From: Escherichia phage JES2013
Strand: one strand, 5' to 3'
Length of the DNA: 64,000 bases
Sequence record: KC690136
Shown here: positions 22,247 to 41,068 of the stretch, one piece after another
How positions within the stretch are numbered: the stretch's first letter is position 1
How the letters are laid out: each line of letters starts with the position of its first letter
Made by a program: the position numbers and the translations under genes
Notes under the pieces: generated by a model
What the model saw: the letters and a program-made list of their open reading frames with translations, nothing else
What the model was told of the DNA's origin: nothing
The model's database searches: none

Positions 22247-22335
22247 CGCGTTCTCCTGAGAAAATTCCTTAGGACTATTTTAACACTTTAGAGAACAAAA
22301 TGCAAGAACGGAGTCCTTTCCGTTCTGACCTTTGT

Positions 22336-22650: not shown

Positions 22651-22661
22651 AACACCTCCTC

Positions 22662-23246
22662 TTAGAGGGTAGGTCGCTCCGGGAAGAAAATGTCAGGGGC
22701 TTTAGATGTATCTATTTCAAGAAGTTTTACCCTGTACATTTTCAAATCTCTGATGTTACGTTTCTGGTCATCAGTAAGATCATATTCAAGGTCAATCATG
22801 TCTTGATAGGCACCAATTCTAGCAGTAGCCCAAGCAAGTTCTGTCTCTATGACACCCTCTGCCTGTTGAACAAAGAATTCATTATCTGTGACAAATTCAT
22901 CACCAACTAAACGCAAAGCGTCGTGGTGAAGCATAATGTTTTCTGGTACCTCTTCTTTTTTGGCGATAACCACACGAAGACCTGGAGCAGGCCATAAGGC
23001 ATCAGGTTCTTCTGTAGATGTCTTAAGAATTCCCTTCTCGTCAACAAGTAGGAAGATACAACCCGGATTTTCTTGTCGCAATGTTCGTGACTGCACATAC
23101 CAATCGCCATCATCATTACGTAAAAAATACCCAGTGTATGCTGTGTAATCCTCAACCTCTTGAGGGGTCAGCTCCTTGGTTTCCTTGTTGGTGCGGTATT
23201 CGCCAGATCCCGGTTGGTAAAGTTTAAACTCTTGAAGTATTTTCAT
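22662..23246 (-). CDS. tail fiber assembly chaperone (Tfa-like)
   Basis: 194 aa, directly downstream of fiber paralog B; C-terminal DIFFPERP is Tfa-like. Confidence 0.45.
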   Translation of the reverse strand: MKILQEFKLYQPGSGEYRTNKETKELTPQEVEDYTAYTGYFLRNDDGDWYVQSRTLRQENPGCIFLLVDEKGILKTSTEEPDALWPAPGLRVVIAKKEEVPENIMLHHDALRLVGDEFVTDNEFFVQQAEGVIETELAWATARIGAYQDMIDLEYDLTDDQKRNIRDLKMYRVKLLEIDTSKAPDIFFPERPTL

Positions 23247-23260
23247 GCTAGTCCTCCGAT

Positions 23261-24301
23261 CTATGCATAATTAACAGTGATCCATTGACCATTTACAAGT
23301 TTTTGTAAAGGTCCTGCCCAGTAGGTTGAACCACGCATCTCTTTTTTGTCACCGAAATGCCAGCCTGTGACAACGTAGCCGTTGCGGATTGGAGATTCAG
23401 AAACTCCGTCCACAAGTCTTGCACCGATTCTGATGTCTTGCACACCTGTCTGCGGGATAGTGATCGTTACATCACCGTTACCGTTAGCCGTCACTCCGTT
23501 CACAGAGCGAACCACATTTCTGTTACCGACAACACAGTGCTGGCTTCTTACAACCATACTGTCACAACTTGCACCACCATTAACATACACTGACCCAGCC
23601 GTCAACTGACTAGCCACATTACAGTTGGTGAATGTTGCTGTATTGCTGATAGTAAGGTTATTGCACCTCATGTTATCGACAACTTCAACATTGCCTACCA
23701 CTTTCAACAGCGCACGATTAGCCGTGATCGCGTTAAGGTACATCAAAGTGAACTCTGGATTAATATCCGGCTGAGTTGGCTGGAATCTCCAACGAAACGC
23801 ATCTACCGTAGATGTACCACCATCATCAAACGACCCGGTATTATCACTTAACCCAAAGTCGAGAGTTGTCTTATCTGGGCCAATAGTTGTCTCTATCCAA
23901 GCCTTATCTGTCTCGGCAGCTTTAAAGTTGATACGTTGCAAACCCAATGGGCCTGTCATTGTATCACCTGTAACTTTTACATACCTGGCGTCTGCCTCTT
24001 CCTTAGTAATAATCCCAAGGTTTCTACGGGCAACAGGGATGTTCAAAAGATCACTCAAGTTATTATCACGTACCAGATAACGGCCTTCTTGAGCGGGGAT
24101 CTGCTCGTCAGCAATGTATTTTGCCCAAGTTCCGAGCATATTGAAAATATAGTTAAGTTCTTCACATGAGGGCTTTTGACCAAGATCCCAACCTTTTCTC
24201 CACAAATCATCAATCGGGCGTAGCCTGTTCTGTCTGTGGGTGTTAGGCAGAACCTGATCCTCCTCTGCCCAAATCTCTAATGGAAAACTAGGTTTTGACA
24301 T
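23261..24301 (-). CDS. tail fiber protein, paralog B
   Basis: 346 aa. Motifs ARRNLGI and GDTMTGPL; paralog of 21203..22246. Confidence 0.55.
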   Translation of the reverse strand: MSKPSFPLEIWAEEDQVLPNTHRQNRLRPIDDLWRKGWDLGQKPSCEELNYIFNMLGTWAKYIADEQIPAQEGRYLVRDNNLSDLLNIPVARRNLGIITKEEADARYVKVTGDTMTGPLGLQRINFKAAETDKAWIETTIGPDKTTLDFGLSDNTGSFDDGGTSTVDAFRWRFQPTQPDINPEFTLMYLNAITANRALLKVVGNVEVVDNMRCNNLTISNTATFTNCNVASQLTAGSVYVNGGASCDSMVVRSQHCVVGNRNVVRSVNGVTANGNGDVTITIPQTGVQDIRIGARLVDGVSESPIRNGYVVTGWHFGDKKEMRGSTYWAGPLQKLVNGQWITVNYA

Positions 24302-24313
24302 TTTATCTCCTGA

Positions 24314-26386
24314 TTATGAGAAGTCTGGCGGGACAACATCTTCTACATACCCTTTCAGAGCAACCTGCCCCATATGAAGCACGGTAGAATCTCTAGCGGT
24401 AACAGTGATGCTGTCAGACATTACTTGCGGGTATGCCCACACATACTGTTTTACCTCAGGGTATCTATACTCTATAGTTGCCATGTTTCCGCAAATACAT
24501 CTCCATAAAAATTCTTGGTAATTCCTAGTTGGGTCGTAGCCATATACCGGAGCAAGCTCTTTACTAGGAACGAACCCTGCAAGGTATTGTATTTCAGACG
24601 GTTGCCAACCTAACTTAACGATAGGTATGTTTACAGACTCTTTTGCCTTTTCAATACCTCCCTGCATCACCCAATCGTAGCACTCGGTGCAGAAGAAATC
24701 AAGAGCACCTGCTTCTTTTTTATATTGGTCAGCAAGGTTCAGCTTTTGCGTAAGCTCGGTTTCCATAATGGTTGGGAAAAACAGTAGAGCTGTCATCTGA
24801 GCTGATGCAGCGTGTGCCTTTATTGCCTTTGAAATAGCCGCAATACGAGCGCCAAGCTTACCACGACAAAATGCTACATACTTGTCGTAAACACCGCCAG
24901 TTTTAGGATCGTCAATAGTCCCAATATCTAATGCATACTCACCTGTCTCATCATAAAACGCCTGTTTTGTAGGGTAATCATAAATACAAGGTCTACGAGT
25001 ATCGGTATTGAACCACCACCACGGTTCACCAACCTGCATAATCACTGGCAGGTTGTTTCTCATAGCGGCTGATGCAAAATTCTTAAATACTGCCGTAAGG
25101 AAATTCATACCCTCTTCAATGGTTGGAGACAGGAGGTAGCTACAAGGTGTATACCCTGTTTTAGCGTAGTTATCGTTCCAGTCTCTTTGGGTCCATTCCA
25201 ACGGACAGGCATCGCTGTAAAGCTCAAAACTTACAGACTGCATAACGTCGAAGTTGTGTCGTTTGGCATTGTACATAAAATCATCATGCCATTTATAAGC
25301 TGCAGCGTTTAGCGCCCCTGTTCTGTTTATAGACCATTGGGTTCCTGACCATGTGTAGTCATAATAATGACTCATACCAACATAGTGGTTTATGGTTCCG
25401 GTATAGCCCAGACGCTTGATATTGTTCAACACCCTTAAAGGAGATACGTTCCACATATCGTCATATGCGGTGCAGATCCCGACGTCGTGCTCTTTAACCT
25501 GAATATTGTTAAGTTGCATCATTTTCCAGCCCGTGTCTGGCTGAAGCAGATCTAGGCGCAACTCACACTCTACATTTTCCGTTCTCGGGTCTGTGCTATT
25601 ACTTACCCAGTCTTTAGGCATAAGCGGTATTAAAATCCTTCTCACCTGCCGAGGATCAACACCCATCATGTTGTTGTTCTGATCCATCCCGACGCAGTCC
25701 TCGAAATCAATATGAATCTCTGCAACATTCTTATCCTCTGAGATGCTGACAGCATATTGAGCTAAAGGAACATAGATGATTGTGCCATCAACAAGGTCTA
25801 CAGTCATAATCATCTTTTCAGGAGTGGAGAAGTTGCTGGCATTGGTTATTGACATTCTGAACCAAAGCTTGGTGTTTCTCATCTCATAGTGATCATCAAA
25901 CCCAATACCGAAATGGTCATACTTGTCAACTGTTTCCCAAATGCACCCAGCCATACCTCCATATGTTCTTGACACTAAACGGTTAATACAACAGTTGTCA
26001 TCTGCAACAATACAGGTACTTTCAGTCTGCTGAGTGGTTGTAACCCAATATCTTGGGTGAAACATTCTCTCCTCAACAGTATCCCAGGATATCCTGTCAA
26101 GATTCTCATCTGAAACTATTGTACATTTCGCCCTTTGTGTCCCAATCATCACCCCTTGAGATTTTGATGAAAACTCCATAAAGAAGCTTCTTGGTAACCT
26201 GTTGGGTAATTTGTCAACAATTTCCACGGGGATCTCAATACTGGTTGCCCCAATTGGGATAGTTACATCGCCCTCAACATGATTATAATCCCTACCAGGA
26301 ACGGCAGTATCCTGAACTGTTCGGTAGTGAAACTGTGCAGCCATTGTAGAGTAATCACGGTAAGGTTTAAAAACAGCTGTTGCCAT
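24314..26386 (-). CDS. tail/baseplate-associated structural protein
   Basis: 690 aa, Trp/Tyr-rich. N-terminal segment GRDYNHVEGDVTIPIGATSIEIPVEIVD is Calx-beta-like. Confidence 0.35.
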   Translation of the reverse strand: MATAVFKPYRDYSTMAAQFHYRTVQDTAVPGRDYNHVEGDVTIPIGATSIEIPVEIVDKLPNRLPRSFFMEFSSKSQGVMIGTQRAKCTIVSDENLDRISWDTVEERMFHPRYWVTTTQQTESTCIVADDNCCINRLVSRTYGGMAGCIWETVDKYDHFGIGFDDHYEMRNTKLWFRMSITNASNFSTPEKMIMTVDLVDGTIIYVPLAQYAVSISEDKNVAEIHIDFEDCVGMDQNNNMMGVDPRQVRRILIPLMPKDWVSNSTDPRTENVECELRLDLLQPDTGWKMMQLNNIQVKEHDVGICTAYDDMWNVSPLRVLNNIKRLGYTGTINHYVGMSHYYDYTWSGTQWSINRTGALNAAAYKWHDDFMYNAKRHNFDVMQSVSFELYSDACPLEWTQRDWNDNYAKTGYTPCSYLLSPTIEEGMNFLTAVFKNFASAAMRNNLPVIMQVGEPWWWFNTDTRRPCIYDYPTKQAFYDETGEYALDIGTIDDPKTGGVYDKYVAFCRGKLGARIAAISKAIKAHAASAQMTALLFFPTIMETELTQKLNLADQYKKEAGALDFFCTECYDWVMQGGIEKAKESVNIPIVKLGWQPSEIQYLAGFVPSKELAPVYGYDPTRNYQEFLWRCICGNMATIEYRYPEVKQYVWAYPQVMSDSITVTARDSTVLHMGQVALKGYVEDVVPPDFS

Positions 26387-27083: not shown

Positions 27084-28574
27084 TTAAATAGTTTGTTGGA
27101 AAGTTATATTACTTTCGTCGAGGTCAAACACCTCGGTCATGTTCGCAACAATATCGTTTGTAGTGTAAGCTTCATCAGAAGCTCCTACGGATTTAACTTG
27201 AATTACCAGTCTATTAAATCTGCCTATTGACACAGCAGCGGATGCAGCACCGACCAATTGGATATTGTATAACGTATCTGCAACATCCAGTCCGTTAACA
27301 ACCTGCAAAAGAGCCTCTACAATGGCATCTTTTTCGGTTGTGGAAAGCGCAGCACCGGAGTAGGTAATTCTTACATCCAAGCGGTAGGTATTTGCCCTGG
27401 AGTAATAAATTCTTTCAGTTTGACCGTCAGATGTAGTGACATCGTAGAAAATATTACCATAAGTCCTGTTCGTACAGGCTATAGTTTGGTAAAGTGCTTG
27501 GCAAATGTCCTCCGTTGCACCACCAAACACAACCACTTGGAACTTGTAAGGAGGTATACCTTTAGCATCAGTTTTATCGGTATTGTTAGAGAACACTCTC
27601 ACTTTCTCAACACCTTTCACCTCGCTTACAGCGCTAAGGATTGCAGGACGGGTAGCCTTAGATGTTAACTGTTTTGTGCTGGAAGCTCTTAAGCGATACT
27701 CTGAGTCTTTCTCAACATCCCTGCCCTCATTGAATCTTTCTCTGTTGGTAAGCTTGATAAATCCACTGGGAGTAGGTGACATTGTTGTCACGGTTTCTGC
27801 CTCTCTTGACAGCTCACCAGCCTCGTTAGCGATAACATCCAGGGTGATAGTTCTTTCCCCTACAATCGGAGATACTCTGAAATCTACCCTACTATTAAGT
27901 CCAACTTGATCAAGATTCGAATTGTACCCTATCCACAACGTTCCTGTCAACATATCGATCTGAATCAAATCGTCGTTCAACAGGGTTGTATTATCGACAA
28001 TGAATTGCTTAATCTCTCCGTAAAAGCTTGGCAGATCAGAAGAGTCCAGAGCCTTATCTGTTAAAACCAAACTTTTTGTTTTGATACTTCCATCTGTCTG
28101 GTTGGTAATTTGAAAGTTGTATTTACCAATCCTCAGGTCTGGAGCATTTATTCTGTGGGCAATAAGATTCCCTGCCACTTGCACATCATTGCTAAGAACA
28201 AAGTTGCCACTATCCAGCGTATAAGTTTTGGAATCATAAATCATATTGTACGGCACAGTTGTGTTGATCGTCAACTGGCAGGTACCTGATGATTTAGAAC
28301 GGCCTCTTCGGTAAATACCCTGTCTTCCAAGAAGCTCATCTAGGTAAATACCTTCTGCCCCATACAGCGTCTGTGATGCGTATACAGATGCTGCCATAAG
28401 AATAAGTTGATACTCTCGCTCGTTGAAGATAGTGGTCAGCTTATCTGCAACGGAGTTACTCTGTACGTTGAAGTTTTCGCCAAAAGCACGGATCAGGCTT
28501 TGCTTAGTTTCAACGATTAGGTCATTTAGGGTTGGTATAACGAAACCAGCCTCTGTCAATCCATACTTAGCCAC
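27084..28574 (-). CDS. putative baseplate wedge protein (gp6/J-like by position and size)
   Basis: 496-aa ORF following a terminator; call by gene order only. Confidence 0.3.
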   Translation of the reverse strand: MAKYGLTEAGFVIPTLNDLIVETKQSLIRAFGENFNVQSNSVADKLTTIFNEREYQLILMAASVYASQTLYGAEGIYLDELLGRQGIYRRGRSKSSGTCQLTINTTVPYNMIYDSKTYTLDSGNFVLSNDVQVAGNLIAHRINAPDLRIGKYNFQITNQTDGSIKTKSLVLTDKALDSSDLPSFYGEIKQFIVDNTTLLNDDLIQIDMLTGTLWIGYNSNLDQVGLNSRVDFRVSPIVGERTITLDVIANEAGELSREAETVTTMSPTPSGFIKLTNRERFNEGRDVEKDSEYRLRASSTKQLTSKATRPAILSAVSEVKGVEKVRVFSNNTDKTDAKGIPPYKFQVVVFGGATEDICQALYQTIACTNRTYGNIFYDVTTSDGQTERIYYSRANTYRLDVRITYSGAALSTTEKDAIVEALLQVVNGLDVADTLYNIQLVGAASAAVSIGRFNRLVIQVKSVGASDEAYTTNDIVANMTEVFDLDESNITFQQTI

Positions 28575-28679: not shown

Positions 28680-31600
28680 TTAGTCGTGAGACTCGTTCCA
28701 AGGTCCCTGGAAGCTTGAGTTAGAACGACTAACGATCACAGTAGGACAGGAGATTGTGACACCTGTCACGCTCGACGTTGACCACGGTGTGTAAATCTCG
28801 ATAACAATGTCTATAGTTTGTTCACCCAGACCTGTTATCCCTACCGCACACATGCCGTTGTTGTCGTTAAAATACTTCTTGCCAGCAAGGATCTGATGAC
28901 CAGCTATCCATACATTCAGTTGGGAGCTGGCAAGAGTACCATTCAGTTTAAAGAAGAATGTTACGTTCTTACCCTGACCTGAAACGTTATCTACGTATCT
29001 CCACCTCCAACGGCAAACCCTTTGCTGGGAGTTATATACTGGAGCACAATCTCCGTAAGTCCTGTGTGCAACAATCGCACCTTCGAACTGGTTAGCACGG
29101 ATAACAGAAGCTTCTACACGACCACGGAAGGTACCTCCGGTTGCATCTATGGTGCCTCTAAAGCTACCATTATTGGCATAAACATCACCACGGAAGGTAC
29201 CACTGGTGGCGTTAACTGCCCCTGTGAAGTTACCAGAACTGGCGTTGATGTTACCTTTCACCCACACATCCATAAATTGGGCGTGCCCGTTCTTGTTAAT
29301 ATACCAACCGTAGTTATGGTACCCGTTGCTATCGTAGTTGTTTGACGAAATTTCTTGTGCGATCTTGGCAGAGGAGATCGTGCCATTCTCTATAAAAGCG
29401 TCTTTCAAGAACGCTTGGTTATTCTTGATTGCGAAAGCAAGGGTTGCTGTGCCGTTACCAGGATTGTACACCGCAAAGTTGTTTGCACTAACCATAAAGT
29501 ATGATTGAACTTGTCCTCCAGACCCCTCCATGCCCAGCTGGATACCTGCCACATATTTATTACCATGGCTGTCAACCTGAATCTTAGCCCCCCACTGAGC
29601 ATCTATTTTACCCTCAAGTGTTGTTACAGCTTTAGAGGTATTAGATACTGTAGCCCTAAGCTCATCAATATTACCCATTTCGTCAACAATTTCTTGTTTT
29701 GCAGAGGTAAGTTCTTGACGGATCGCTGTGGCTGTATTATTAACAAGATCAACTGTTGTACTATTAGTTTCTTGAATAGATGCTTGCAGATTGGCAACCT
29801 CTTTCTGCACATCATCTTCCAGCTTGGTGATCTTCCCTGTAGCTGCCACCAGATCCTGCTTAATAGCTTCCGTTGTCTTATTTAGCAGGTCGGTTGTTGC
29901 CTTGTTGGTTTCTTGAATAGAGGAGTTAAGTTTGCTCTCAGTGTTCTTCAACTCTTCCCGCAGAGTACCTTGAGTTGCAGTTATTTGCTCACTCAATGCT
30001 TGAGTTTTACGATTAACAAGATCAACGGTTGATCTATTTGTTGTCTCGATTAGTGACCCAAGCCTACCAGACTCTGCTGCAAGTTTATCGTCAAAGGATT
30101 GCTGAGCTGCTACCAGCTTACTGTTAAGGGCAGAAATTTCTCCATTAACCCCTGTAAATTTTTCTGTCGTCTCTCTGACAACACCCTCTATTGTATCTCC
30201 AAGCTCTTCAAAAATGCTAGTAACACGGTCATTGACTGCACCAACATTTTTATCCATTTCCTTGACTGCATTATCGAGATTGGCGGTAAGCTCTTTATAA
30301 GTCTCTGTCTTTTTGAACTCAGCATCAATCTGCGGCATAAGATCTTCTATGGATGTGTAACAGTGGGCTGCACACTCCACAAAAGCAGATGAACCAAAAG
30401 CCTTTGTTGTCCTGATATACCAATAATAAATCTTATCGTTCTGCAGACCTTCAGATGTCCAAGTTGAACCAACACCCATACGAGTGGCTTTTGAAGTAAC
30501 GGTTGCATCACTGGTATCTGGCAATCTTGTCATCCCAGATGTCCAAAAGTCATATTGGGTGCTTACACTGGCCAAGTCTCTGCTGTGCGGGATCAGGGTA
30601 ATAGCAAAGTATCCCTGTTTAACTTCTACAGAAACCGGAGCCTCAGGTGCCTGAATGTTAAACTCACAGTATGCTTCTGGAGATACACCACCTTTATAAG
30701 ATGTTGCAACAACAGTGGCTGTGTAGGAACCTTTAGTCAGACCTTCAACACGGACAAACTGCTCAACTGTCTGCGCTGTCCAGACAATCTCTCCGTTTTT
30801 CCTGACCTGCACAATGTTTTGAGCATAAGTCCCAACGTTGTCCCAAGCCAAAACACCGTGAGTTACTTCTCCAGCTTGGAGAACGGAATATCTGAAGTTT
30901 TGCGGTTGAGCTACTCCAGATGGAGATATCGGAATATCTACATCGCCAGAATCCGGAAGTTGCCCTGTGGCATCATTCCACTCTTTAGCATCTTGACGAA
31001 GTTTTACCTTGACACCACCCTTTTTGGTAAACTCCCATTCAAGAACTCTCATTTCTTGGCCCACTATACCAATACTTGGGAGGTCCATTGTAACGTAACG
31101 ACCAGGTTTAAATTTGAAACCTCGCATATTGCAGGTGACTTCAATAATCCTGCCAGCTCTGGCACGTCTTAGGAAGATTGCAGAAACACGTTGAGCTTGA
31201 TAAGGACTGGTAACAAAGCGATAGTCTATATCGATTATCTTTCTTTCTCCATCCTTCTCTATCCACTCTGGGACAAACACTGATGGAAAATCTGTTTCAG
31301 AATACCCTTTGGTCGGACTAGTGAATCTGCCAGTTATTGTGTTGGATCTTTTGTCAAATGAGGCTTCCGGATAGATCTTGACCTCACCACAGACACAATC
31401 CTCACTCAGCGTCATTGTTGCCGGGCCATAGTATGCACCAACCAGCAAACCATACTTACCAGCTACATAGCTGAGATCTGCGCCACAAGCTTTCAGCATT
31501 TCTGCCATAATGCTTGCCGGAGCCTCGTCCATGTCAAACTCGCCATTAATGGTGTATCGGCGCTCACTGGTTCCGTCTGCGTTTTTTACCGCCTCGTCGC

Positions 31601-32279
31601 ATATGTTAGCAGCCTCCTTGAAGGACTCCCAGTTGATGGTTTCGTCAGGACATTTAAGGTACGTTCTTAAATAGTCTAGAATCACCAAGGCCGCGTTATT
31701 GGTATACACCTCTTTACTGATACGAGGATCATAGCATTTTTTACCAACCTTGACAAGTGTAACGTTTGGCAACCCAAAAGGAAACTTGTTAGGGTCAAAC
31801 CTGAAGCTGGCACGTAGCCAACTGATCCCTCTACCTATCATGTCGGGTGACCATGATGGGCAGTGTGTACCCATGAAAGGATCAGATGTTTTTCTGTCGT
31901 TATGTAGCTCCCACGATACCAGATCTCCATACGAGGAAATAGGATTACCGTCGATAAGTATATCTTCTACACCTTCCAGAGGGTGATTGGCAAGAACAAT
32001 AGCACAATGGAGGGTTCTGTCTCTGTCCTGCTCCAAAAACGCAAGCAATCCAGACGTACGTGTCTTACCATACACTACAGAGCAAGGTGCAGCAGAAGAT
32101 CTGAGAAGCTTTTGTCTATCTTGCTGACTTCTGTAAGATTTGTTGCCCTCAAAAATCTTATCCAGAGTTCTGGTGGTAACAGTGTTCAGGCTGTCAGCCA
32201 GAGCTGCCTTGGATGCGTTCCAGTCATAACTTGAAGATCTTGCAGAAGCAACGATGTTATCAATCATTGCAATTGGCAT
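28680..32279 (-). CDS. large tail fiber / host-specificity protein with FN3-like segment and coiled-coil stalk
   Basis: 1199 aa. Repeated TTDLLNKTTEAIKQ / TTVDLVNNTATAIRQ heptad blocks; FN3-like beta region; N-terminal third resembles the central part of J-type tip proteins. Confidence 0.45.
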   Translation of the reverse strand: MPIAMIDNIVASARSSSYDWNASKAALADSLNTVTTRTLDKIFEGNKSYRSQQDRQKLLRSSAAPCSVVYGKTRTSGLLAFLEQDRDRTLHCAIVLANHPLEGVEDILIDGNPISSYGDLVSWELHNDRKTSDPFMGTHCPSWSPDMIGRGISWLRASFRFDPNKFPFGLPNVTLVKVGKKCYDPRISKEVYTNNAALVILDYLRTYLKCPDETINWESFKEAANICDEAVKNADGTSERRYTINGEFDMDEAPASIMAEMLKACGADLSYVAGKYGLLVGAYYGPATMTLSEDCVCGEVKIYPEASFDKRSNTITGRFTSPTKGYSETDFPSVFVPEWIEKDGERKIIDIDYRFVTSPYQAQRVSAIFLRRARAGRIIEVTCNMRGFKFKPGRYVTMDLPSIGIVGQEMRVLEWEFTKKGGVKVKLRQDAKEWNDATGQLPDSGDVDIPISPSGVAQPQNFRYSVLQAGEVTHGVLAWDNVGTYAQNIVQVRKNGEIVWTAQTVEQFVRVEGLTKGSYTATVVATSYKGGVSPEAYCEFNIQAPEAPVSVEVKQGYFAITLIPHSRDLASVSTQYDFWTSGMTRLPDTSDATVTSKATRMGVGSTWTSEGLQNDKIYYWYIRTTKAFGSSAFVECAAHCYTSIEDLMPQIDAEFKKTETYKELTANLDNAVKEMDKNVGAVNDRVTSIFEELGDTIEGVVRETTEKFTGVNGEISALNSKLVAAQQSFDDKLAAESGRLGSLIETTNRSTVDLVNRKTQALSEQITATQGTLREELKNTESKLNSSIQETNKATTDLLNKTTEAIKQDLVAATGKITKLEDDVQKEVANLQASIQETNSTTVDLVNNTATAIRQELTSAKQEIVDEMGNIDELRATVSNTSKAVTTLEGKIDAQWGAKIQVDSHGNKYVAGIQLGMEGSGGQVQSYFMVSANNFAVYNPGNGTATLAFAIKNNQAFLKDAFIENGTISSAKIAQEISSNNYDSNGYHNYGWYINKNGHAQFMDVWVKGNINASSGNFTGAVNATSGTFRGDVYANNGSFRGTIDATGGTFRGRVEASVIRANQFEGAIVAHRTYGDCAPVYNSQQRVCRWRWRYVDNVSGQGKNVTFFFKLNGTLASSQLNVWIAGHQILAGKKYFNDNNGMCAVGITGLGEQTIDIVIEIYTPWSTSSVTGVTISCPTVIVSRSNSSFQGPWNESHD

Positions 32280-32716
32280 TAATACCTCCAGACATCAACA
32301 ACGATAGAATCTTTCATGTCGAACATAAAGACCCCTTTATCACCTTTCGCCCAAATCTGGTTGTTCCAGAACACACCAGCGGTGAGCCCGTTCAGACCTT
32401 CGAAAATGACAATATCTCCACGCTGAACCTGTTTAGGAGTATCCAGCCGAGTCATAAAGAGATCAAAAATAGTAGGCAGGTGTGTAGTTTTGAAACGAAG
32501 CATGCACCATCTTTTGCTTTCCAACTCTGTTTTATACGTTCCTTCGAAGTTGGAAAGAAAATCTGTTCCGTATTGGGCATCAACACACTTAGCCGCAAAG
32601 GTGCAACAATCGTGGAATCCCCATTCAAAAGGTATGGTGGCCTCTTCGTCAAACACTTTCCACAATCTTTCTTGCCAATCCACTAAACGAGGGTGTGTGC
32701 TCATTAAACCTCCCAA
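32279..32716 (-). CDS. small tail-tip assembly protein, NlpC/P60-like Cys motif (tentative)
   Basis: 145 aa with FHDCCTFAAKC; sits immediately upstream of the large fiber gene. Confidence 0.3.
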   Translation of the reverse strand: MGGLMSTHPRLVDWQERLWKVFDEEATIPFEWGFHDCCTFAAKCVDAQYGTDFLSNFEGTYKTELESKRWCMLRFKTTHLPTIFDLFMTRLDTPKQVQRGDIVIFEGLNGLTAGVFWNNQIWAKGDKGVFMFDMKDSIVVDVWRY

Positions 32717-33270
32717 ATGATCGGGCGGCTCGCCACCTGATCCACATATTTAAAAAATCTGTCATTATCGTTTCTTGAGCTGTGGCTTTCCTCCGTGTAC
32801 CGATAAGGAAAACCTCTTAACCAACTATTGAAGATGGAAGAGATGGATATGGACAAAGCACTATTCTCCCCTGTCTGAATAGCCATATCTGTTATAAGGC
32901 CGTCAAACAAGCCATTAGTTGTGACAGGCAGACCATTCTCCATAGCGGTAATGTACAACGTGGCACGACAACCGGAATACTCCGTCTTCAGAAGATCACC
33001 CACATACTTAGGATCAAACCCGTTCAATGTCGCTACCACAGATCCGAAGTTGGTGGCATCTTTCTCAGACACAGCAGTTAACGTTGCTGATCCACCTATC
33101 CCTATAAAATGTTGCCCCTCAATTACTACAACACCAGTGCCTGAGCACACCCTGACAGTTCCTGTCGGTAGCTCCAGCTTTGCAGCAATTAAGATCTCAA
33201 CACCATCAAGCTCCAGCTTTTCAAGAAATAAATTATCTAATGGCGCTCTGATCATCTTAGAAATCCTCAA
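32704..33270 (-). CDS. minor tail protein (hypothetical)
   Basis: 188-aa ORF overlapping neighbours by 13-14 nt. Confidence 0.35.
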   Translation of the reverse strand: MRISKMIRAPLDNLFLEKLELDGVEILIAAKLELPTGTVRVCSGTGVVVIEGQHFIGIGGSATLTAVSEKDATNFGSVVATLNGFDPKYVGDLLKTEYSGCRATLYITAMENGLPVTTNGLFDGLITDMAIQTGENSALSISISSIFNSWLRGFPYRYTEESHSSRNDNDRFFKYVDQVASRPIIWEV

Positions 33271-33847
33271 AGAAGTTGATAACTATATTATCACCTTTTT
33301 GCATAGCATCGACTTTTTGCTTAATTTTATAAATATCTCTGATATGAAACCTACCCTTCGGGGATTGAGTTATTATCTTCATAGTGTCCCCTGCGGCAAT
33401 AGGTTTTCTAAGTCTTGGAGATATGCTTATAACAGCAGACCCAACACCATCGCTACGCACTGGAGCTGTTACCACTTTCAATTCATCATTGACAGATATT
33501 TTATCCCCAGCTCTGGCTATGTCTCTGTTTGGCTCCCACCCTACCGTCTTCAAAAAATCGTCGTTACCAGTAGGCCCAAGGGCGATTGGCTCATTAGCTG
33601 TTACCGAGTGACCGTAAGTTTTAATAAGAAAGATGTTTCCATCTTTATACACCTGATCAACAAAGCTCTTAAGCTCTAGCAACTGTGACTCGCTGATATT
33701 GGAGACCGTCAAAGTGCCTTTCCAGTTAGGTGTGGCATAGGTTACTTTTTGCGTTTTACCTGTAAACGGACTTTTAAACGTAACAATATCTGCCAGCAGC
33801 TCCAATCTAATATCTGGAAGGTATCTAGGCCTTTCCCATAAAAACAT
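33257..33847 (-). CDS. minor tail protein (hypothetical)
   Basis: 196-aa ORF. Confidence 0.35.
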   Translation of the reverse strand: MFLWERPRYLPDIRLELLADIVTFKSPFTGKTQKVTYATPNWKGTLTVSNISESQLLELKSFVDQVYKDGNIFLIKTYGHSVTANEPIALGPTGNDDFLKTVGWEPNRDIARAGDKISVNDELKVVTAPVRSDGVGSAVISISPRLRKPIAAGDTMKIITQSPKGRFHIRDIYKIKQKVDAMQKGDNIVINFFEDF

Positions 33848-33946: not shown

Positions 33947-36900
33947 TTACTTCAGTTTCTCTTGCAACCCAGTAACAACCTCTGTCAATTTTTTAACCTG
34001 CTCCTCAAGGTCGGTTATTTTATCGTCCTGTTCCCTGCAAACCTGGACAAGCAAGCCTGTTACAGCTGCGTAATCCACGCTGTAGAATCTTTCCTCTGTT
34101 ATCAAAGGAGTTCCATCTTGATCAGGGTTTGGGATTTCCTTTCTTTGCACGAAAGAGCTAACTGCTTCCGGCAGCGCTTCAAGCACTTCTTGTGCTATAA
34201 CACCTGCATAAGGCATACCGTTCTCTTTAAGAGTGTAAGTATAACCCTTCATCTTCCGGATAGCTTCTAACGCATCAGGAATAACAGCTATGTTATCTTT
34301 CAGATCTCTGTCAGAACTCTGATTGACAGATGTGCAATTCACAGCGCCGTTTACAGAAAGATATCTTGATTTATCTGGCAAGGTACCGCAATGCCATACC
34401 CAATTTGATTGAGACTCGTCAAGAACCTTAAACTCTAACACGTTTGGACGATCTCCTGTGCTGCCGTTACCCCAATAATACATATGGGCGGCATTAGCAG
34501 GCATGTTGCCACCGTTATTAGTAACATGACTTCCAGAAATATATACCTTTAACTCTGGGGTTGGTATTTCCCCTTCCGGGGTTGTTCCTCCATACCTGAA
34601 GCTAACACCATTACCACCTGTTTGGGTCCACGGGCCCCAAGTGAAGACCTGTTTCACCATATTCCCATAACGTGTAAATCTATCGCCATGGTAGGTAATA
34701 TATTCTTGAACACACCCATCACCGTTATTGGCGTTATTTTGCAACACAATAAGTGTTCCGGCCTCATTTACGGGATAATGACGATCATATGTTGCATCAT
34801 TATTTGCAGGCTGATGGTAAATACCTTCCCACAATCCGTGATAGGTGTTAAGGTCTGAAGAACCAAGACCTTGACCCCTGTGTTGCATAGCCTTATTCCA
34901 GGGATGGTGATTACCACCTTCTATAGACCTGGTGTATAAGTTACTTTGTCTGCCAGCAATCTGGAAAGCGTAGTTTCCCGAGAATCCTACAGATAACCCG
35001 CCTACAACCATGGTATCTTGTGGGCCGTTAACATTACCAGCTATTATTTTTGACGGGTTGTTAGGCCCAAACTGGTTGTTCCAGTCTGCACCCGTGTGGC
35101 ATACAAAACCGCCCGGAGCTGAGAAAGTGCCATCTTTGTTGAAGTTGTAGAATCTATGAGCTGTGCCTACAACATCACGAACAATAACTTGAGCAGCTTC
35201 TGGAGTAGATCTGAACTCTGCCTGTCCTTGCAGTCTTGCACCATTACCACATTTAGAGGTAAAGGTGTTGTTGATCAGATCCTCTGTTCCTTCCGACGCA
35301 GCCTGGAACCCTGCATTAGAGAACAGTGCTTTTCGAGTGGTCTGACTACCAGGGCAAAGGTAGTCAATACCGTCTGCCCATAGCTCGACTTTAGGCATAT
35401 TCATTTTGCTCATCACAGCATAGCGTTCAGCAGTGCCTATATAGTGCCACTGTGTGCCGCCACCAGTGTAGAACCCTGAAGTACCTTTGAAGTCAACAAT
35501 AGGTCTGGTATTGGTGTTGTTATCTCCAAGAACAGCGAGATTCAAATCTGCTGACTGGAGAGGTGCAACGAACTTAACACCGTCCTGATTGTTTGTTACA
35601 GAGCCGACCTGGTAATCTTGCTCTCTGGTAAACACTTCGACAACATTTCTACTTGCGTATATGCTGACAGGGAAAGCACGAGCCTCTACATAGAAAGCAA
35701 CATACTCTTGTTTACCCCTTGTTGGAGCAACCATCCCAAGAAGTGCTTTTTCATTCTGGTAGAAATTTACTACCCCGTAGAAAGAGTCTCCTCTGTCTGT
35801 CCAACCACCAGTCCTATAGTGACACTGTAAGGTAGCACAGTTCATAGGGTCATTTCCAGATGACGATCTGGTAACTATGGTAATATCAGTACCAGTTGCT
35901 GGAGCATAGTACGGATCTGTTCTAACGATGATCGGGTAGTATTTCCCATCTTCCATCCCTGCGGTTCTTGGCAGTGTTAAGAAGTCTTTCACACCTGCTG
36001 CTATAGGAACTTTGAACAGATTCTGAGCATCTGCTAAAGTTGTAGCCCCAGTACCACCTGCGGCTTGAGGTAAAGGTTCCCACTTGGCCTTCCGGTTGTT
36101 ATAAACACCCCATTCCAGAGTGCCGTTACCGGATTCGTCCATCCCACCATCCCAGACAACCATCTTGGCGGCTTTCTTGGACCCCCAGAAGCCTCTTTCT
36201 GCCCCTGAACTACGGATCCATTCTCCAAGACCCCAGTTTGTCAGCTGACCAGTAAGATCCCCAACCTGCATGTATTTAGGGCAGTCTAACACGCCATCTT
36301 CGCGGAAACCTAAATATCTATGAGTTTCAGATCCTTTTGCACCTTTGTGCAGGTGGATTGTCAACCAAGCCTTATTGTCGTTTCTTACCTCAGAGTAGAT
36401 CCTATATCCATGCTCAAGGACACCGTCAGCGCTGTATTTGTCCCCGTTAACAATACCTGATGCTGACTTAACATCAGCAGAACTTTGAGACAGGTAAAGG
36501 TGCCCAAAGGTAGGGGAGTTTCTAGACCCGAGACCGATGTGCGCTCTAAAGGTATCATCGTTACGAGGTCTGACCATCGGCTGCCATGCAGTCCACTGAT
36601 TTGTGTTGGCCTGATAGGTTCTTAAATACCAAACATCTACGTTAGAGAATGGATAGTATTCCTGACGACAACCTGTACCGCCGTTAGCATTGTTCTGCCA
36701 AACAATCAGGTGACCAGCACCAGAACCTGCAGGGTAACCATTTGCCTCAGTTGCATAAGCAGTCATCGGCTGGTAGTATACACCATCCTGATTACCAGTC
36801 AAGTTATTGATATTGAAATTTGGCTCAAGGGCTGCACGTTGCTTATAGAAAGCACCGATATTGATACGGACTCCAGCGGCATCTCTAGCCCCTGTGCCGC

Positions 36901-37765
36901 CTTGCTCTATAGCAAGAGGTTGCCACGAGGCTGTTTGTTGGTTCCACATACCCCAACGGCCTGTTGCGTCAAGCTGCAAGTACCCTGCCGTGTTTAAATC
37001 ATCTCCAGCACGGATAACTGTTCTTGTTGGGTTGTTTGCCTCCAGGCGTTTAAATTCATCACGAAGTGCTATTCTTTTCGTTGTTGCTACACCGTTGGTT
37101 ACTGCAATGGTGTACATGGCTCCGGTGGTAGCGCCACGGAAAATACCATCAACAGTTGTAGTATCACGACGAGATACCACACCGTTCAGAAATTTTTCAC
37201 CAGCTGCTGCAGAAGGGTAGTTGGTAGTTCTTCCCTCTTCAATAACTGCAGGGCCAACAAAGTTATCAAGGTGAATAACATCGCCTACAGTGTGCACTGT
37301 ACCAAAATCTACACGCTGTGCAAGTGCTTTGGCATCGTTAGCTGTCTGAACAGTAACATCCATTACATCCTGGACAGACTGCCCTTCGGCTGTCATGATC
37401 ATAGATGCGCCAATGGTAGATTCCAGCTCCTCCCTTAAGGACGGGTCTGTATATACCGTCCATGCAGCGTCAGTAATCCCACCATCGGAGTACGGTGAAG
37501 ACAATGCAGGAACAGTGTGCGGAAATTCGCCTTTCCAACGCAGGTAGAGGTCTTCCTCTTCGAAGTAGGCAAAATCCATTGGGCCGTTTAACTTACCACC
37601 TTCCTTAAAGGAGATTACATGAGAAACAGTCCCATCAACATGGACAACATCGCCAATTTTTACACGACGGGTCAGGTCTGGTTGTTGAACAACCAGGTAA
37701 TCATCCTCTGTCACTGCGGTAGTGGCAGGAAGAGATTCAATTCTGACAACTTTAATATCAGCCAT
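33947..37765 (-). CDS. tailspike / tail fiber with N-terminal anchor domain and C-terminal intramolecular chaperone (peptidase S74-like)
   Basis: 1272 aa. C-terminus SDRDLKDNIAVIPDALEAIRKMKGYTYTLKENGMPYAGVIAQEVLEALPEAV is S74-chaperone-like. N-terminus is homologous to that of 40400..41068. Confidence 0.6.
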   Translation of the reverse strand: MADIKVVRIESLPATTAVTEDDYLVVQQPDLTRRVKIGDVVHVDGTVSHVISFKEGGKLNGPMDFAYFEEEDLYLRWKGEFPHTVPALSSPYSDGGITDAAWTVYTDPSLREELESTIGASMIMTAEGQSVQDVMDVTVQTANDAKALAQRVDFGTVHTVGDVIHLDNFVGPAVIEEGRTTNYPSAAAGEKFLNGVVSRRDTTTVDGIFRGATTGAMYTIAVTNGVATTKRIALRDEFKRLEANNPTRTVIRAGDDLNTAGYLQLDATGRWGMWNQQTASWQPLAIEQGGTGARDAAGVRINIGAFYKQRAALEPNFNINNLTGNQDGVYYQPMTAYATEANGYPAGSGAGHLIVWQNNANGGTGCRQEYYPFSNVDVWYLRTYQANTNQWTAWQPMVRPRNDDTFRAHIGLGSRNSPTFGHLYLSQSSADVKSASGIVNGDKYSADGVLEHGYRIYSEVRNDNKAWLTIHLHKGAKGSETHRYLGFREDGVLDCPKYMQVGDLTGQLTNWGLGEWIRSSGAERGFWGSKKAAKMVVWDGGMDESGNGTLEWGVYNNRKAKWEPLPQAAGGTGATTLADAQNLFKVPIAAGVKDFLTLPRTAGMEDGKYYPIIVRTDPYYAPATGTDITIVTRSSSGNDPMNCATLQCHYRTGGWTDRGDSFYGVVNFYQNEKALLGMVAPTRGKQEYVAFYVEARAFPVSIYASRNVVEVFTREQDYQVGSVTNNQDGVKFVAPLQSADLNLAVLGDNNTNTRPIVDFKGTSGFYTGGGTQWHYIGTAERYAVMSKMNMPKVELWADGIDYLCPGSQTTRKALFSNAGFQAASEGTEDLINNTFTSKCGNGARLQGQAEFRSTPEAAQVIVRDVVGTAHRFYNFNKDGTFSAPGGFVCHTGADWNNQFGPNNPSKIIAGNVNGPQDTMVVGGLSVGFSGNYAFQIAGRQSNLYTRSIEGGNHHPWNKAMQHRGQGLGSSDLNTYHGLWEGIYHQPANNDATYDRHYPVNEAGTLIVLQNNANNGDGCVQEYITYHGDRFTRYGNMVKQVFTWGPWTQTGGNGVSFRYGGTTPEGEIPTPELKVYISGSHVTNNGGNMPANAAHMYYWGNGSTGDRPNVLEFKVLDESQSNWVWHCGTLPDKSRYLSVNGAVNCTSVNQSSDRDLKDNIAVIPDALEAIRKMKGYTYTLKENGMPYAGVIAQEVLEALPEAVSSFVQRKEIPNPDQDGTPLITEERFYSVDYAAVTGLLVQVCREQDDKITDLEEQVKKLTEVVTGLQEKLK

Positions 37766-37800
37766 TCTTTCTCCTGAAAGGGGGCAAACAGCCCCCTATG

Positions 37801-40398
37801 TTAAAGGTACAATCCACGGTATTGAGCATAGAGGCCCAGACCGCGAAGGATTTCGCCAGAGTGATAGCCCACCGGATCAGAAACTGCCCAGCAGCCGTTT
37901 AAAACATTATCACCATTGATGAAGTGGTGCTTTTGCAGTAGCTTCATACAGGCTTCTACAACAATATCTATTTGAGGTATTGTCTCTGAATACCCGCACA
38001 GACCTAGCCAGCAGCAACCTGCAAGCCATTCACCTACCACCCACATCCTGTCCCCTCTGTCTTGATAAGAATATCCCCCAGAGGTGTTAAAGTCTGTAGG
38101 CAGATTTCCTGAATGAGATGACTGGAATCTGTTGAGGAACCATGCCCATTTCTGGCAGAACAGGAATAATCTTTCATCAACAGGTTCTTTATGTTTCTTG
38201 AGCTCATAGATTGTGCGGCACGCAGCAACAAAAGATCTTGACTGGAGCTTGGAGTTATCTACCATCTCCCACCAACCAGTCAACCCTTCATTACCTCTTT
38301 GCCATACATAACGTGAGGCAACTGGACCCTCTGTCTTAAATGTATTATTATACCAGACTTGAGCGTCATACAGAAAGCCTATTGTATTTGACAATCTATG
38401 GCGATCTATGTTTTCTGCACCCATGCAGTAGACTGCCGGGTATTGCATGCCTGGGTAGGGCCAATTTGGCCTTTCCTCTAAGAGATAGTTTTCCTTATCT
38501 ATCACCTTTCCGGCAGGGAACACACCTGGTGTGTGCCTGTATGCACCTTGCTTGTAGTTTCTGACATAGCAATCGCCAACCTTAGCGGTTGATTCTGTCT
38601 TGCTTGCCATCCATACGCTAAACCAGATTAGATAAGCATCCCTATCTGCAATATAGAATTGCGGCAGCGTGTTGACGCAATATAGATCAAACAAGCCATT
38701 ACCTATCTGCCTGTCGCTTAGGCTGAAATCTACAGAGGTGAGCCCCTTAGGATTAGCAAAGAAAGGTTTAATCTCTTCTTCAGTGTGATGAGGTTGTGTC
38801 GGATCTAGTTTGAAATCTCCTAGAGTAAGAGTTTCTGTTATCCACTGTCCATTAGTGGCATATAGATCAGCATACCATAACCACCTGTCTTTGTCAAGAA
38901 ATTTGACCCTTACCATCTCATCATCTGATCGATAAGTTACTGAGTTTAAAGAAATCTCTCTTCCAAAATTGAAAGTTACTTTACCTCTTGCTATATTACA
39001 ACGGGTGAAGTTGTCAGAGTGGTTGTAAATGTCGGTATCATACTGCATACTAACACTAGCGCCACCACTTACGACAATGTTTTCCTCTTTAGGTAAGAGA
39101 TATGGATTACCGTCTTTACCAACCACCTCTACGAAATCAGTAACCTTGGCAACTATTTCTGTTACCTCTGCCCCTCCAAAAGGAACACCTATCCTGTACT
39201 GTTTTTTGTTATTGTTGCCATCATTAAGGATGAAATGTGGCTGGAACAGAACCCCTTCTCCTCCGAAATTCATAACAATTTCAGCATCTCTGCCTATTTT
39301 GTATGTAGTCCCTTTTTGAATTATTTCGCAAGGCTGGCGTGCGTTCATTCTAAAATTGATATATCCGTCACTGTCCCTGCTCATGACAGGAACTGTTCCT
39401 GCAACAAGACAAGTACCATCTGTAAACGGTGCCTTAATCAACGTGGTCTTCCTAAACAGTTTGTCGTAGGCGTTTATATCACTGAAATTAAGCAACTTGT
39501 TGTAAGACTGTTCAAACGCGGTGTAATACTTTTCCTCACCTGTCAAGGTGTAGAGTTGATAACAAGCGTCACACCACATTTCTTCCCCGTCCAACTCTGG
39601 GGCCTGATTATCTGCAACCACGTTTATGGGATTTACAATTACAGGGGATCCTGCAGGTATCACCGATCCACCCTGCTCTTGAGGTAATCTTACACAATAG
39701 GTCACTTTGTGGTTGCCTGTAACACCCTTATCTTGTAATTGGATTGTGCCAAACTCTACAGACGTATGACCACTATCAGCTATACTACCGTTAGCCCAAT
39801 AGCGATTACCATCCCATGCTATATACCACTCAACCCACCAACTTAATCCGGATGTTGTCCAATCTGGGTTAGCATCTGTGCCACCGTAAACATCAGAGTC
39901 TACAGTGTTTCTTCCTAACACGCCGTTATACGCTTGGAATGCCTTGTCCAGGTATTCCCCCCATGTCGGAGATCCAGCTGGGATTTTTCCTCTACCATTG
40001 GTAAAAGACACCACCACATCTTTAAACCCACCATGTGATGGAACCCCATCTGTGGATAGAGGGTAGTGGGACAATCTTTGCATTTTACTTTCTACTGCAT
40101 ATGCACCCAGAAGATGACTATTGTAAGCTTCCCAAGCATCTTTTGCCCTATCCAGATAGAAATCGCTTTTCGATGCTCTGTATGCTTCAATGTATCCCAG
40201 AATCAACACAGCTTGGGACTCATGCATTGCCCAATCATTATTTATCTTATTACCTGCCCACCCTGCAGCTATAAGACCATCAGGGTTTACTAGCTTATTT
40301 TGTGTAGGGGTGTTGGTAATACCTGTGTTGTTATCGAGGCACTTCCTGTGCCCCTCAATCATCTGAAATACGTTATCAATGTTATGTTGAATACGCAT
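37801..40398 (-). CDS. large Trp/Tyr-rich tailspike-associated protein (putative glycan-degrading enzyme)
   Basis: 865 aa; AGGAG precedes the ATG, which lies 1 nt after the stop of the anchor-domain gene. Confidence 0.35.
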   Translation of the reverse strand: MRIQHNIDNVFQMIEGHRKCLDNNTGITNTPTQNKLVNPDGLIAAGWAGNKINNDWAMHESQAVLILGYIEAYRASKSDFYLDRAKDAWEAYNSHLLGAYAVESKMQRLSHYPLSTDGVPSHGGFKDVVVSFTNGRGKIPAGSPTWGEYLDKAFQAYNGVLGRNTVDSDVYGGTDANPDWTTSGLSWWVEWYIAWDGNRYWANGSIADSGHTSVEFGTIQLQDKGVTGNHKVTYCVRLPQEQGGSVIPAGSPVIVNPINVVADNQAPELDGEEMWCDACYQLYTLTGEEKYYTAFEQSYNKLLNFSDINAYDKLFRKTTLIKAPFTDGTCLVAGTVPVMSRDSDGYINFRMNARQPCEIIQKGTTYKIGRDAEIVMNFGGEGVLFQPHFILNDGNNNKKQYRIGVPFGGAEVTEIVAKVTDFVEVVGKDGNPYLLPKEENIVVSGGASVSMQYDTDIYNHSDNFTRCNIARGKVTFNFGREISLNSVTYRSDDEMVRVKFLDKDRWLWYADLYATNGQWITETLTLGDFKLDPTQPHHTEEEIKPFFANPKGLTSVDFSLSDRQIGNGLFDLYCVNTLPQFYIADRDAYLIWFSVWMASKTESTAKVGDCYVRNYKQGAYRHTPGVFPAGKVIDKENYLLEERPNWPYPGMQYPAVYCMGAENIDRHRLSNTIGFLYDAQVWYNNTFKTEGPVASRYVWQRGNEGLTGWWEMVDNSKLQSRSFVAACRTIYELKKHKEPVDERLFLFCQKWAWFLNRFQSSHSGNLPTDFNTSGGYSYQDRGDRMWVVGEWLAGCCWLGLCGYSETIPQIDIVVEACMKLLQKHHFINGDNVLNGCWAVSDPVGYHSGEILRGLGLYAQYRGLYL

Positions 40399-40399
40399 C

Positions 40400-41068
40400 T
40401 TAGATAGCTCCTGCGATAATCAGTGCCCCGTACCAAGTTAACCCGTTGTCGTAGGTTTCCAACTTGAAAATGTCTGTTGCACCAGCTGTAAATGTTAGGA
40501 TAGGATCTCTTCCGTAGGACCATTTAACATTACCAGGCCAATAGACTTTGTTGCCGCCAGAGGTCTGAGTAATGCATACGGTTATAGTTCTCGCCACCCC
40601 TTCAAGACCTTCTGTTTGATTTTCAAAAGAGATTGTGGTATTTGAAGTTAGTCGAACTTTAAAGGTATCCGCAACTTCAAGATCCATATCAAGCTGACCA
40701 CCGATAGATCCGTAATCAACTATTCTGCCAGAAGAAGTTGCAGCAAGCTCACCAAAAACAGACCAGGCATTTGCAGACACACCCCCAGCACCCTCTACCG
40801 TGGAGTCTGGGAGGATTATTTTAGGATAATCCCCGTTCCACGTGTAGTAGCGCTTAGTTTCTGGATCATAAGCAAAGTCCTTCTTGCTCTTAAGATAACC
40901 ACCCTCTGTGAAATAGACTATCTTAGTAATGCTAAGATCGTTGACAACATCGTCAATCTTAGCCTTTCTTGTCCCATCAGTCTGGTTGACAACCAAGAAG
41001 TCATCACTCAGGACTGTTTCTGCATCTTCAAGATCTGGAATTGGTATTGTAGGATAAGCTACAGCCAT
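40400..41068 (-). CDS. tailspike anchor/adaptor protein
   Basis: 222 aa. N-terminal ~90 aa (DDFLVVNQTDGTRKAKIDDVV...EGGYL...DFAY) align with the N-terminus of 33947..37765. Confidence 0.5.
   Translation of the reverse strand: MAVAYPTIPIPDLEDAETVLSDDFLVVNQTDGTRKAKIDDVVNDLSITKIVYFTEGGYLKSKKDFAYDPETKRYYTWNGDYPKIILPDSTVEGAGGVSANAWSVFGELAATSSGRIVDYGSIGGQLDMDLEVADTFKVRLTSNTTISFENQTEGLEGVARTITVCITQTSGGNKVYWPGNVKWSYGRDPILTFTAGATDIFKLETYDNGLTWYGALIIAGAI

Follow-up and report, generated by a model that had tools for sequence, protein, structure and literature searches.

The gp43-gp42-gp41 locus

A stretch of 64,000 nucleotides of Escherichia phage JES2013 (sequence record KC690136; called the window below) contains, at positions 33947-41068, three open reading frames (ORFs), all on the minus strand, that encode proteins of 222, 865, and 1272 amino acids, and the relationship of the first of these to the other two is the subject of this analysis. 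A preliminary description, made from the sequence alone, had read the set as a branched receptor-binding apparatus in which a common N-terminal anchor attaches different enzymatic heads to the baseplate, with the 222-residue protein as a separate adaptor for the 865-residue protein. Comparison with related phages supports the adaptor role, as a C-terminal "knob" like that of the 222-residue protein is invariably encoded immediately 5' of the gene for the 865-residue protein, and the small protein most likely fastens its larger partner to the baseplate.

The window DNA is that of an rV5-like Vequintavirus. Over positions 33947-41068 its identity with Escherichia phage V5 (rV5) is 97.9%, and matches that span 80% or more of this region occur in 114 phage records. 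The coordinates of the three ORFs were confirmed, and by position and annotation the ORFs match gp43, gp42, and gp41 of rV5, whose names are used here:

40400..41068, minus strand: gp43 homologue, 222 residues, proposed adaptor for gp42; best PHROG match 7760, E value 8e-120
37801..40398, minus strand: gp42 homologue, 865 residues, virion protein; predicted (alpha/alpha)6 six-hairpin barrel with beta-rich inserts, without N-terminal anchor
33947..37765, minus strand: gp41 homologue, 1272 residues, long fiber with anchor, Tail_spike_N, and C-terminal chaperone

The genes preceding this set encode the tape measure, tube initiator, plug, hub, central spike, and sheath initiator, and it is followed by a lambda-like tail-tip module and then by wedge genes. 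All three gene products have been detected by mass spectrometry in rV5 virions (PMC3606486), and gp42 is annotated in AlexBoehm as a "lateral tail fiber protein with glycosidase domains."

gp43 and gp42 are separate, coupled genes

The junction between the two genes reads ...GCAGGAGCTATC TAA G ATG..., and its elements are arranged as follows:

40396..40412, minus strand: coupled junction, with AGGAG at 40412-40408, the TAA stop codon of gp43 at 40402-40400, one spacer base, and the ATG of gp42 at 40398-40396

The spacing of one nucleotide between stop and start and the AGGAG belonging to gp42, seven bases upstream of the gp43 stop, are thus present in the sequence as first described. Stop and start codons one base apart might also be expected had a sequencing frameshift split a single gene in two, and the preliminary description had named this possibility as one that would undo its reading. 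The comparative data refute such a split, to which we attach a negligible probability. The split is identical in the 114 near-identical genomes, and separate gp43 and gp42 genes are also found in Seunavirus LNA4, Phapecoctavirus nepoznato, phi92, and many phages that are more distantly related. Junction types vary among these relatives, with spacings of -4, -1, 0, or +1 nucleotides in 52 of the 63 related loci where the junction could be called; TAATG, ATGA, and gaps of 9-43 nucleotides are among the types seen. Moreover, the upstream protein ends with a complete knob, gp42 has its own AGGAG, and nearly all gp42 homologues from the protein databases begin, without an anchor, at the same conserved residue.

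Knob and gp42 adjacency across phages

The evidence that carries the adaptor assignment comes from 71 IMG/VR loci encoding gp42 homologues, retrieved using a 6-sequence alignment, in which all ORFs were scanned with a hidden Markov model of the knob. Wherever upstream DNA was present (66 of 66 loci), the ORF immediately 5' of the gp42 homologue and on the same strand ends in a knob, with E values of 1e-21 to 1e-50, and this is the sole knob-bearing ORF within 6 kilobases on each side. The remaining 5 of the 71 loci, without a knob, are cut at a contig edge or give a weak partial match. Grouped by gp42 identity, the loci form 25 clusters at 90%, 17 at 70%, and 7 at 50%. The order of knob and then gp42 was found in nine further contexts, namely phi92, nepoznato, LNA4, a Burkholderia prophage, a metagenomic myovirus, Rosemountvirus AV127, Moazamivirus SE131, Vibrio phage D495, and the T7-like Aeromonas podovirus Atoyac1. 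A tblastn search of 50,697 phage records gives a similar picture at the level of totals and organism breakdown, with the knob in 524 records and gp42 in 523 (Escherichia, 238/241; Salmonella, 101/101; Vibrio, 60/62; Erwinia, 33/33).

The proteins that carry the knob range from 157 to 563 residues and differ in their N-terminal parts, which may be an anchor with or without Tail_spike_N, Phage_T7_tail (E value 3e-12), Phage_tail_fib, a major-tail-protein domain, an SPRY-containing segment, or, by eye, an apparently coiled-coil segment rich in Ala and Glu. With the anchor, Phage_T7_tail, Phage_tail_fib, or the major-tail-protein domain, carriers possess at the N terminus the kind of virion-attachment module to be looked for in an adaptor, and the gp42 homologues have the features to be looked for in cargo, beginning at their conserved core without an attachment module while gp42 itself belongs to the rV5 virion proteome. 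In Atoyac1 the pair lies between the gene for internal virion protein D (gp16) and the holin gene, that is, in the slot of the T7 gp17 fiber, and the carrier is a protein of 270 residues composed of Phage_T7_tail and knob, followed by the gp42 homologue. Because the knob lies directly upstream of the gp42 homologue whatever the N-terminal module, the reading of gp43 as an adaptor is well supported, and we infer from these sequence comparisons that gp43 and gp42 bind each other physically.

Two groups of loci show the pair in other surroundings. On siphovirus-type contigs (L016-L063; for example, L023 4313-8823), the carrier has 560-563 residues, of which the first ~141 form a major-tail-protein domain, and the gp42 homologue is followed by another major tail protein gene, of the ordinary kind; this suggests that a glycosidase-fold protein is displayed there on a paralogue of the tail tube. 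In the myoviruses SE131 (L082, a Salmonella phage) and AV127 (L079), the pair lies just after head or connector genes, outside the baseplate cluster, and the carriers are those with apparently coiled-coil (Ala/Glu-rich) N termini, as judged by eye, so the complex may be located at the neck or on the head. Separately, N-terminal extensions of ~280 residues in four gp42-family members (P0030, P0036, P0041, and P0068) were considered as candidates for a fused knob on account of a superficially knob-like motif; they were rejected when hhalign against gp43 homologues gave a probability of 1.2%.

Modules of gp43 and the N terminus common to gp41

Comparison with relatives divides gp43 into three modules:

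40934..41068, minus strand: gp43 residues 1-45, anchor peptide common to gp41, with homologues in Seunavirus, Phapecoctavirus, and phi92; putative docking role
40745..40933, minus strand: gp43 residues ~46-108, Tail_spike_N (PF18668), 41 bits against a cut-off of 25
40403..40744, minus strand: gp43 residues 109-222, beta-sandwich "knob," a constant domain ahead of gp42-family genes and the proposed gp42 docking site

The likeness between the N termini of the 222- and 1272-residue proteins, claimed in the preliminary description over some 90 residues, is significant and extends over ~105. In BLASTP, residues 8-105 of gp43 align with 7-105 of gp41 at 38% identity and 56% positives with one gap (E = 2e-18). 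With phmmer, the N-terminal 115 residues of either protein find only the other among all 130 window ORFs of at least 80 amino acids (E values of 6e-18 and 3.5e-19). Both also match Pfam Tail_spike_N above its gathering cut-off, with 41.0 bits for gp43 and 40.6 bits for gp41. The same pairing recurs in three related genera, in the 224- and 712-residue proteins of Seunavirus (47% identity over 103 residues), in the 157- and 921-residue proteins of Phapecoctavirus, and in gp140 and EndoN92 gp143 of phi92 (E value 1e-4), such that anchor segments open both the small adaptor and the neighboring fiber or spike in each.

The idea of a common anchor thus stands, but its extent requires revision. Residues 1-45 of gp43 resemble the N termini of gp41, the 157-residue nepoznato protein, phi92 gp140, and EndoN92 gp143, and the adaptors of phi92 and Phapecoctavirus keep these first ~45 residues while lacking Tail_spike_N. 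The Tail_spike_N module of gp43 has sequence matches in the PDB to Sf11 gp13, CBA120 TSP3 and TSP4, and G7C gp63.1, and in the structure of the siphophage Sf11 the tailspike docks through residues 4-59, ahead of its Tail_spike_N-like segment. As the phi92 and Phapecoctavirus adaptors do without Tail_spike_N and docking in Sf11 precedes it, the anchor is likely to consist of the first ~45 residues of gp43, rather than of Tail_spike_N or of the ~90 residues first proposed. We infer that gp43 is attached to the baseplate.

A metagenomic myovirus (L007, 4588-8001) encodes consecutive proteins of 357, 502, and 244 residues in which anchor-like N-terminal motifs can be seen by eye; the first has a weak BLAST match to nepoznato gp027 (E value 0.008). 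If this likeness is real, that phage too may have several appendages that dock at sites of a single type.

Fold and sequence of gp42

The 865-residue protein is indeed rich in Trp and Tyr, as first remarked, with 27 Trp and 48 Tyr making up 8.7% of its residues. An AlphaFold2 model of gp42 contains twelve helices in three blocks (residues 59-97, 269-321, and 655-860) with beta-rich inserts between them, and these helices form the twelve-helix alpha/alpha toroid that defines the six-hairpin fold:

40108-40224, minus strand: gp42 residues 59-97, barrel helices, from model secondary structure
39436-39594, minus strand: gp42 residues 269-321, barrel helices, from model secondary structure
38479..39411, minus strand: gp42 residues ~330-640, predicted beta-sandwich inserts, where the family varies most, from the model, the family alignment, and PHROG 23426
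37819..38436, minus strand: gp42 residues ~655-860, the C-terminal seven barrel helices, from model secondary structure

The barrel blocks are better conserved in the family than the inserts. Homologue searches returned 4-7 proteins per query when word-indexed and 92 clusters when exhaustive. As a single sequence, gp42 has no Pfam match and no PDB match at E values up to 1, and NCBIfam has no match for gp41, gp42, or gp43. A profile of 41 gp42 homologues compared with the PDB returned six-hairpin proteins only, weakly, at E values of 0.002-0.1. Foldseek against viral models returned mostly family members, with low TM-scores. Three acidic residues (E60, D270, and D678) hardly vary in the family. 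The model places E60 and D270 at the N termini of helices 59-76 and 269-286 and D678 inside helix 663-687. The model and the profile comparison support a glycosidase-type (alpha/alpha)6 fold for gp42. The high conservation of gp42 within the genus suggests that its target is a conserved surface glycan, and identification of that glycan would extend the known receptors of these phages.

Within the inserts, residues ~459-580 (window ~38659-39024) correspond to a mobile module that matches PHROG 23426 and also forms the C-terminal part of another fiber, the anchor-bearing 502-residue protein of the metagenomic myovirus L007 (5749-7257; E value 6e-28 to the nepoznato homologue). This module is possibly carbohydrate binding.

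gp41 and the wedge platform

The anchor and Tail_spike_N of gp41 occupy residues 1-105 (nucleotides 37451-37765), and at its other end lies a chaperone domain:

33950..34315, minus strand: gp41 residues 1151-1272, Peptidase_S74 intramolecular chaperone, Pfam 52.1 bits against a cut-off of 22

The Pfam match (PF13884) itself spans residues 1151-1202, and PHROG matches cover 1078-1269. The motif S1151-D-R-D-L-K1156 is present, which we take to be the Ser-Lys catalytic dyad by comparison with endoNF, and the chaperone is presumably cleaved off after trimerization, as in other members of this family. No enzyme domain was seen in gp41 with Pfam or PHROG, which returned only the anchor, Tail_spike_N, and Peptidase_S74. 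For this reason gp41 is read here as a fiber rather than a tailspike, and the proposal that the common anchor carries different enzymatic heads does not hold for this protein. Self-BLAST of gp41 found no significant internal repeat; by eye, two "W.PL....GGTGA" segments (~281-293 and ~562-574) and two "LIV.QNNAN.G.GC.QEY" segments can be recognized.

A candidate platform for both anchored proteins is encoded downstream:

27084..28574, minus strand: baseplate wedge protein, homologue of rV5 gp36 and phi92 gp145 (32% identity to gp145, E value 2e-67)

In the cryo-electron microscopy structure of phi92, the C-terminal domain of gp145 is the attachment site of fibers I and III, and fiber II emerges from the base of fiber I (PMC13450770). 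By analogy, the wedge protein is a probable docking platform for gp43 and gp41.

Proposed model and rival explanations

Placed together, these observations lead to a model that we consider probable as a whole, in which gp43 is an adaptor that plugs into the baseplate, its knob holds gp42, and gp41 uses a paralogous anchor. gp43 would be short and probably trimeric. Its residues 1-45 would insert into the baseplate periphery, likely on or near the wedge protein at 27084-28574 as judged from homology with phi92, with residues 46-108 serving as a Tail_spike_N neck and residues 109-222 as the beta-sandwich knob. The knob would then provide the docking site for gp42, itself without a virion-attachment module, and the variable N-terminal module would attach the small protein to the tail of the phage, of whatever kind that is. 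Through the coupled junction, gp42 could be translated in step with gp43, helping to match their amounts. Carried on the virion, gp42 may bind, and perhaps cleave, a conserved surface glycan by means of its barrel and variable inserts, and gp41 would mature into a long fiber by cutting off its S74 chaperone. As gp41 carries a paralogous copy of the gp43 anchor, the two appendages might occupy equivalent or adjacent baseplate sites.

Some of the results weigh against this model. A knob-gp42 fusion protein was not found. The identities of knob and gp42 are correlated (r = 0.72), but shared phylogeny by itself could account for this; positive partial correlations with the knob were obtained for gp42 residues 1-40 and 326-640, and since the sequence pairs are not independent, this mirror-tree result is exploratory. 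The gp42 model is of medium quality, with a mean predicted local distance difference test score (pLDDT) of 69.6 and a predicted template modeling score (pTM) of 0.51 from a seven-sequence alignment. At the sequence level, gp42 matches no curated glycoside hydrolase (GH) family (CAZy/Pfam GH8, GH48, GH76, GH88, and GH105), and its placement in a known family is not supported. A weak GH76 alignment matches D270 with the first residue of the catalytic Asp-Asp pair, with Ala or Gly at the second position, and because this second Asp is not conserved, the barrel could be a binding module and not a catalyst. The "enzyme-like" character first ascribed to the 865-residue protein, for which a glycosidase fold search had been suggested, therefore survives as a glycosidase-type, six-hairpin fold with putative catalysis only.

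It could be argued instead that gp43 is an independent short fiber whose knob binds a receptor, that gp42 attaches itself elsewhere, and that the two are coupled functionally, by acting on the same glycan, rather than physically. We regard this as unlikely, although it is the rival to be taken most seriously. The gp42 family begins at its conserved core and has no recognizable attachment module, the Atoyac1 pair replaces a single fiber gene so that the 270-residue protein is the only visible route onto the tail, and subunits of one complex typically show what is seen here in 17 or more lineages, namely strict adjacency with stop and start codons that overlap. A reversal of the polarity is more improbable still. 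Here gp42 would be a baseplate arm or scaffold onto which gp43 and gp41 dock through their anchors, corresponding to the proximal arm of the L-shaped fiber I of phi92. Such an arrangement would agree with the presence of anchor-bearing proteins on both sides of the anchor-less gp42 gene in Vequintavirus, Seunavirus, Phapecoctavirus, and phi92, and with the fact that the proximal arm of phi92 fiber I has no gene assigned (PMC13450770). Yet it is the knob, not the anchor, that accompanies gp42 in all lineages, and carriers with the N-terminal domain of a T7 tail fiber, a tail tube, or a collar fiber, which lack the anchor, still precede gp42. N-terminal modules of these three kinds bind the tail itself. 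Finally, the order of fiber and then partner and the tight coupling resemble fiber-chaperone pairs, one of which lies at 22662-24301, and gp42 might accordingly assist assembly of the knob as a nonstructural chaperone and be missing from the mature particle. This seems very improbable to us, as a protein of 865-1169 residues with a glycosidase-type barrel is unlike known fiber chaperones, and the detection of gp42 in purified rV5 virions (PMC3606486) argues against a chaperone left behind in the cell.

If the adaptor model is extended beyond rV5-like phages, the knob and gp42 would constitute a portable cassette found on all three tail types, with the knob-gp42 contact as a conserved new interface, and fiber II of phi92 would be a gp140 trimer with gp141, beside EndoN92 and using the same anchor peptide. 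We hold this extension to be plausible, if slightly short of even odds. The cassette would be mounted in the fiber slot of T7-like podoviruses, on a paralogue of the tail tube in siphoviruses, and at the collar or on the baseplate in myoviruses. If the interface is real and portable, it would be a ready-made connector for engineering, and exchange of the N-terminal module should move the same glycan-binding or -cleaving protein between very different tails.

Relation to known systems

Branched and adaptor-mediated receptor-binding complexes are well known, and gp41, gp42, and gp43 are known and annotated genes. The closest system is gp140-gp141-gp143 of phi92 (Justusliebigvirus, the "nanosized Swiss army knife"), whose members are direct homologues in the same order after the sheath initiator. 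Identity is 42% between the knob of gp140 and gp43 residues 109-222 and 35% between gp141, over its full length, and gp42, and gp140 and EndoN92 gp143 have their N-terminal anchor peptide in common as do gp43 and gp41 here; phi92 differs in that gp140 lacks Tail_spike_N and that the second anchored protein is an endosialidase instead of a long fiber. In the 2026 cryo-electron microscopy study of phi92, fiber II was left unassigned ("a significant challenge"), gp140 gave no fit by itself, and gp141 was left out of consideration (PMC13450770). The paper on the BASEL collection likewise describes as unsettled which genes build which fibers in these phages, and one review lists phi92 gp141 as a glycosidase. 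The specific assignment made here, that the knob protein carries gp42 and has a docking site in common with the neighboring fiber, could partly fill this gap between genes and fibers.

Small proteins with a T7 gp17-like N-terminal domain fix an enzyme to the tail as adaptors of the K1E, K1-5, and SP6 type. The Atoyac1 cassette has the same layout (Phage_T7_tail and knob, then the gp42 homologue), and these adaptors differ from the cassette in docking domain and cargo fold. In CBA120 (TSP1-4) and G7C (gp66-gp63.1), docking platforms are found inside large tailspikes, as the XD domains of TSP2 and TSP4 or in gp66, and the cargo consists of beta-helix enzymes; here, in contrast, a separate 222-residue protein with a small C-terminal knob is the proposed carrier of an (alpha/alpha)6 protein. 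Tight coupling is also seen in gp37-gp38 of T2 and S16 and in gpS-gpU of Mu, where the partner encoded downstream, a small adhesin or chaperone, is located at the C-terminal tip of the fiber encoded upstream. Gene order and coupling are alike in the present case, but gp42 is large and has a glycosidase-type predicted fold. For K1E and K1-5, the phi92 paper describes an arm-like scaffold that holds the endosialidase (PMC13450770).

Compared with the six-hairpin enzymes of GH48, GH105/GH88, GH8, and GH76 and the cellobiose 2-epimerases, gp42 shows about 10% identity, and its barrel, unlike theirs, is interrupted by beta-rich inserts, about 450 residues in all, that leave it in three segments. 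The capsid spike gp52 of Pa223, a capsid decoration with no known partner protein, is a further match, which comes from a low-confidence model. No paper on six-hairpin proteins in bacteriophage tail fibers was found, nor any description of a knob-gp42 cassette in the literature searched, outside which the 2012 phi92 paper (Schwarzer et al.) falls; the cassette thus appears to be undescribed so far.

Neighboring genes

Inside the myovirus baseplate cluster lies a lambda-like tail-tip module (28680-33847, minus strand), which encodes a 196-residue Dit-like protein (PHROG 1302), a 188-residue tail protein (PHROG 2048), a 145-residue DUF6950 protein, and a 1199-residue J-like protein with Phage_Tail_Tip and Ig_J domains. 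PHROG 1302 and PHROG 2048 also occur after the tape measure in the siphovirus-type locus L023, itself a carrier of the cassette. The J-like protein (28680-32279, minus strand) has 1199 residues here and 1279 in rV5 and AlexBoehm, a difference consistent with the allelic variation of that gene in the BASEL paper.

Further along the minus strand, 24314-26386 encodes a 690-residue homologue of rV5 gp34 and phi92 gp142, in which a Calx-beta domain is present together with the N-terminal and TIM-barrel domains of the non-contractile tail sheath family (E value 1e-79); the BASEL papers link this homologue to a conserved glycan receptor that is common with N4. At 21203-24301, also on the minus strand, paralogous short tail fiber genes (347 and 346 residues) lie on either side of a 194-residue assembly chaperone and a small ORF, identities that follow the annotation in rV5 and AlexBoehm.

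Among the records that match 33947-41068 are some 18-23 labeled "Campylobacter phage" (GenBank MG0656xx, host Campylobacter jejuni). Those listed have 97.2% DNA identity and 99-100% protein identity to the rV5-like region, and the Campylobacter jejuni host labels of these records look doubtful.

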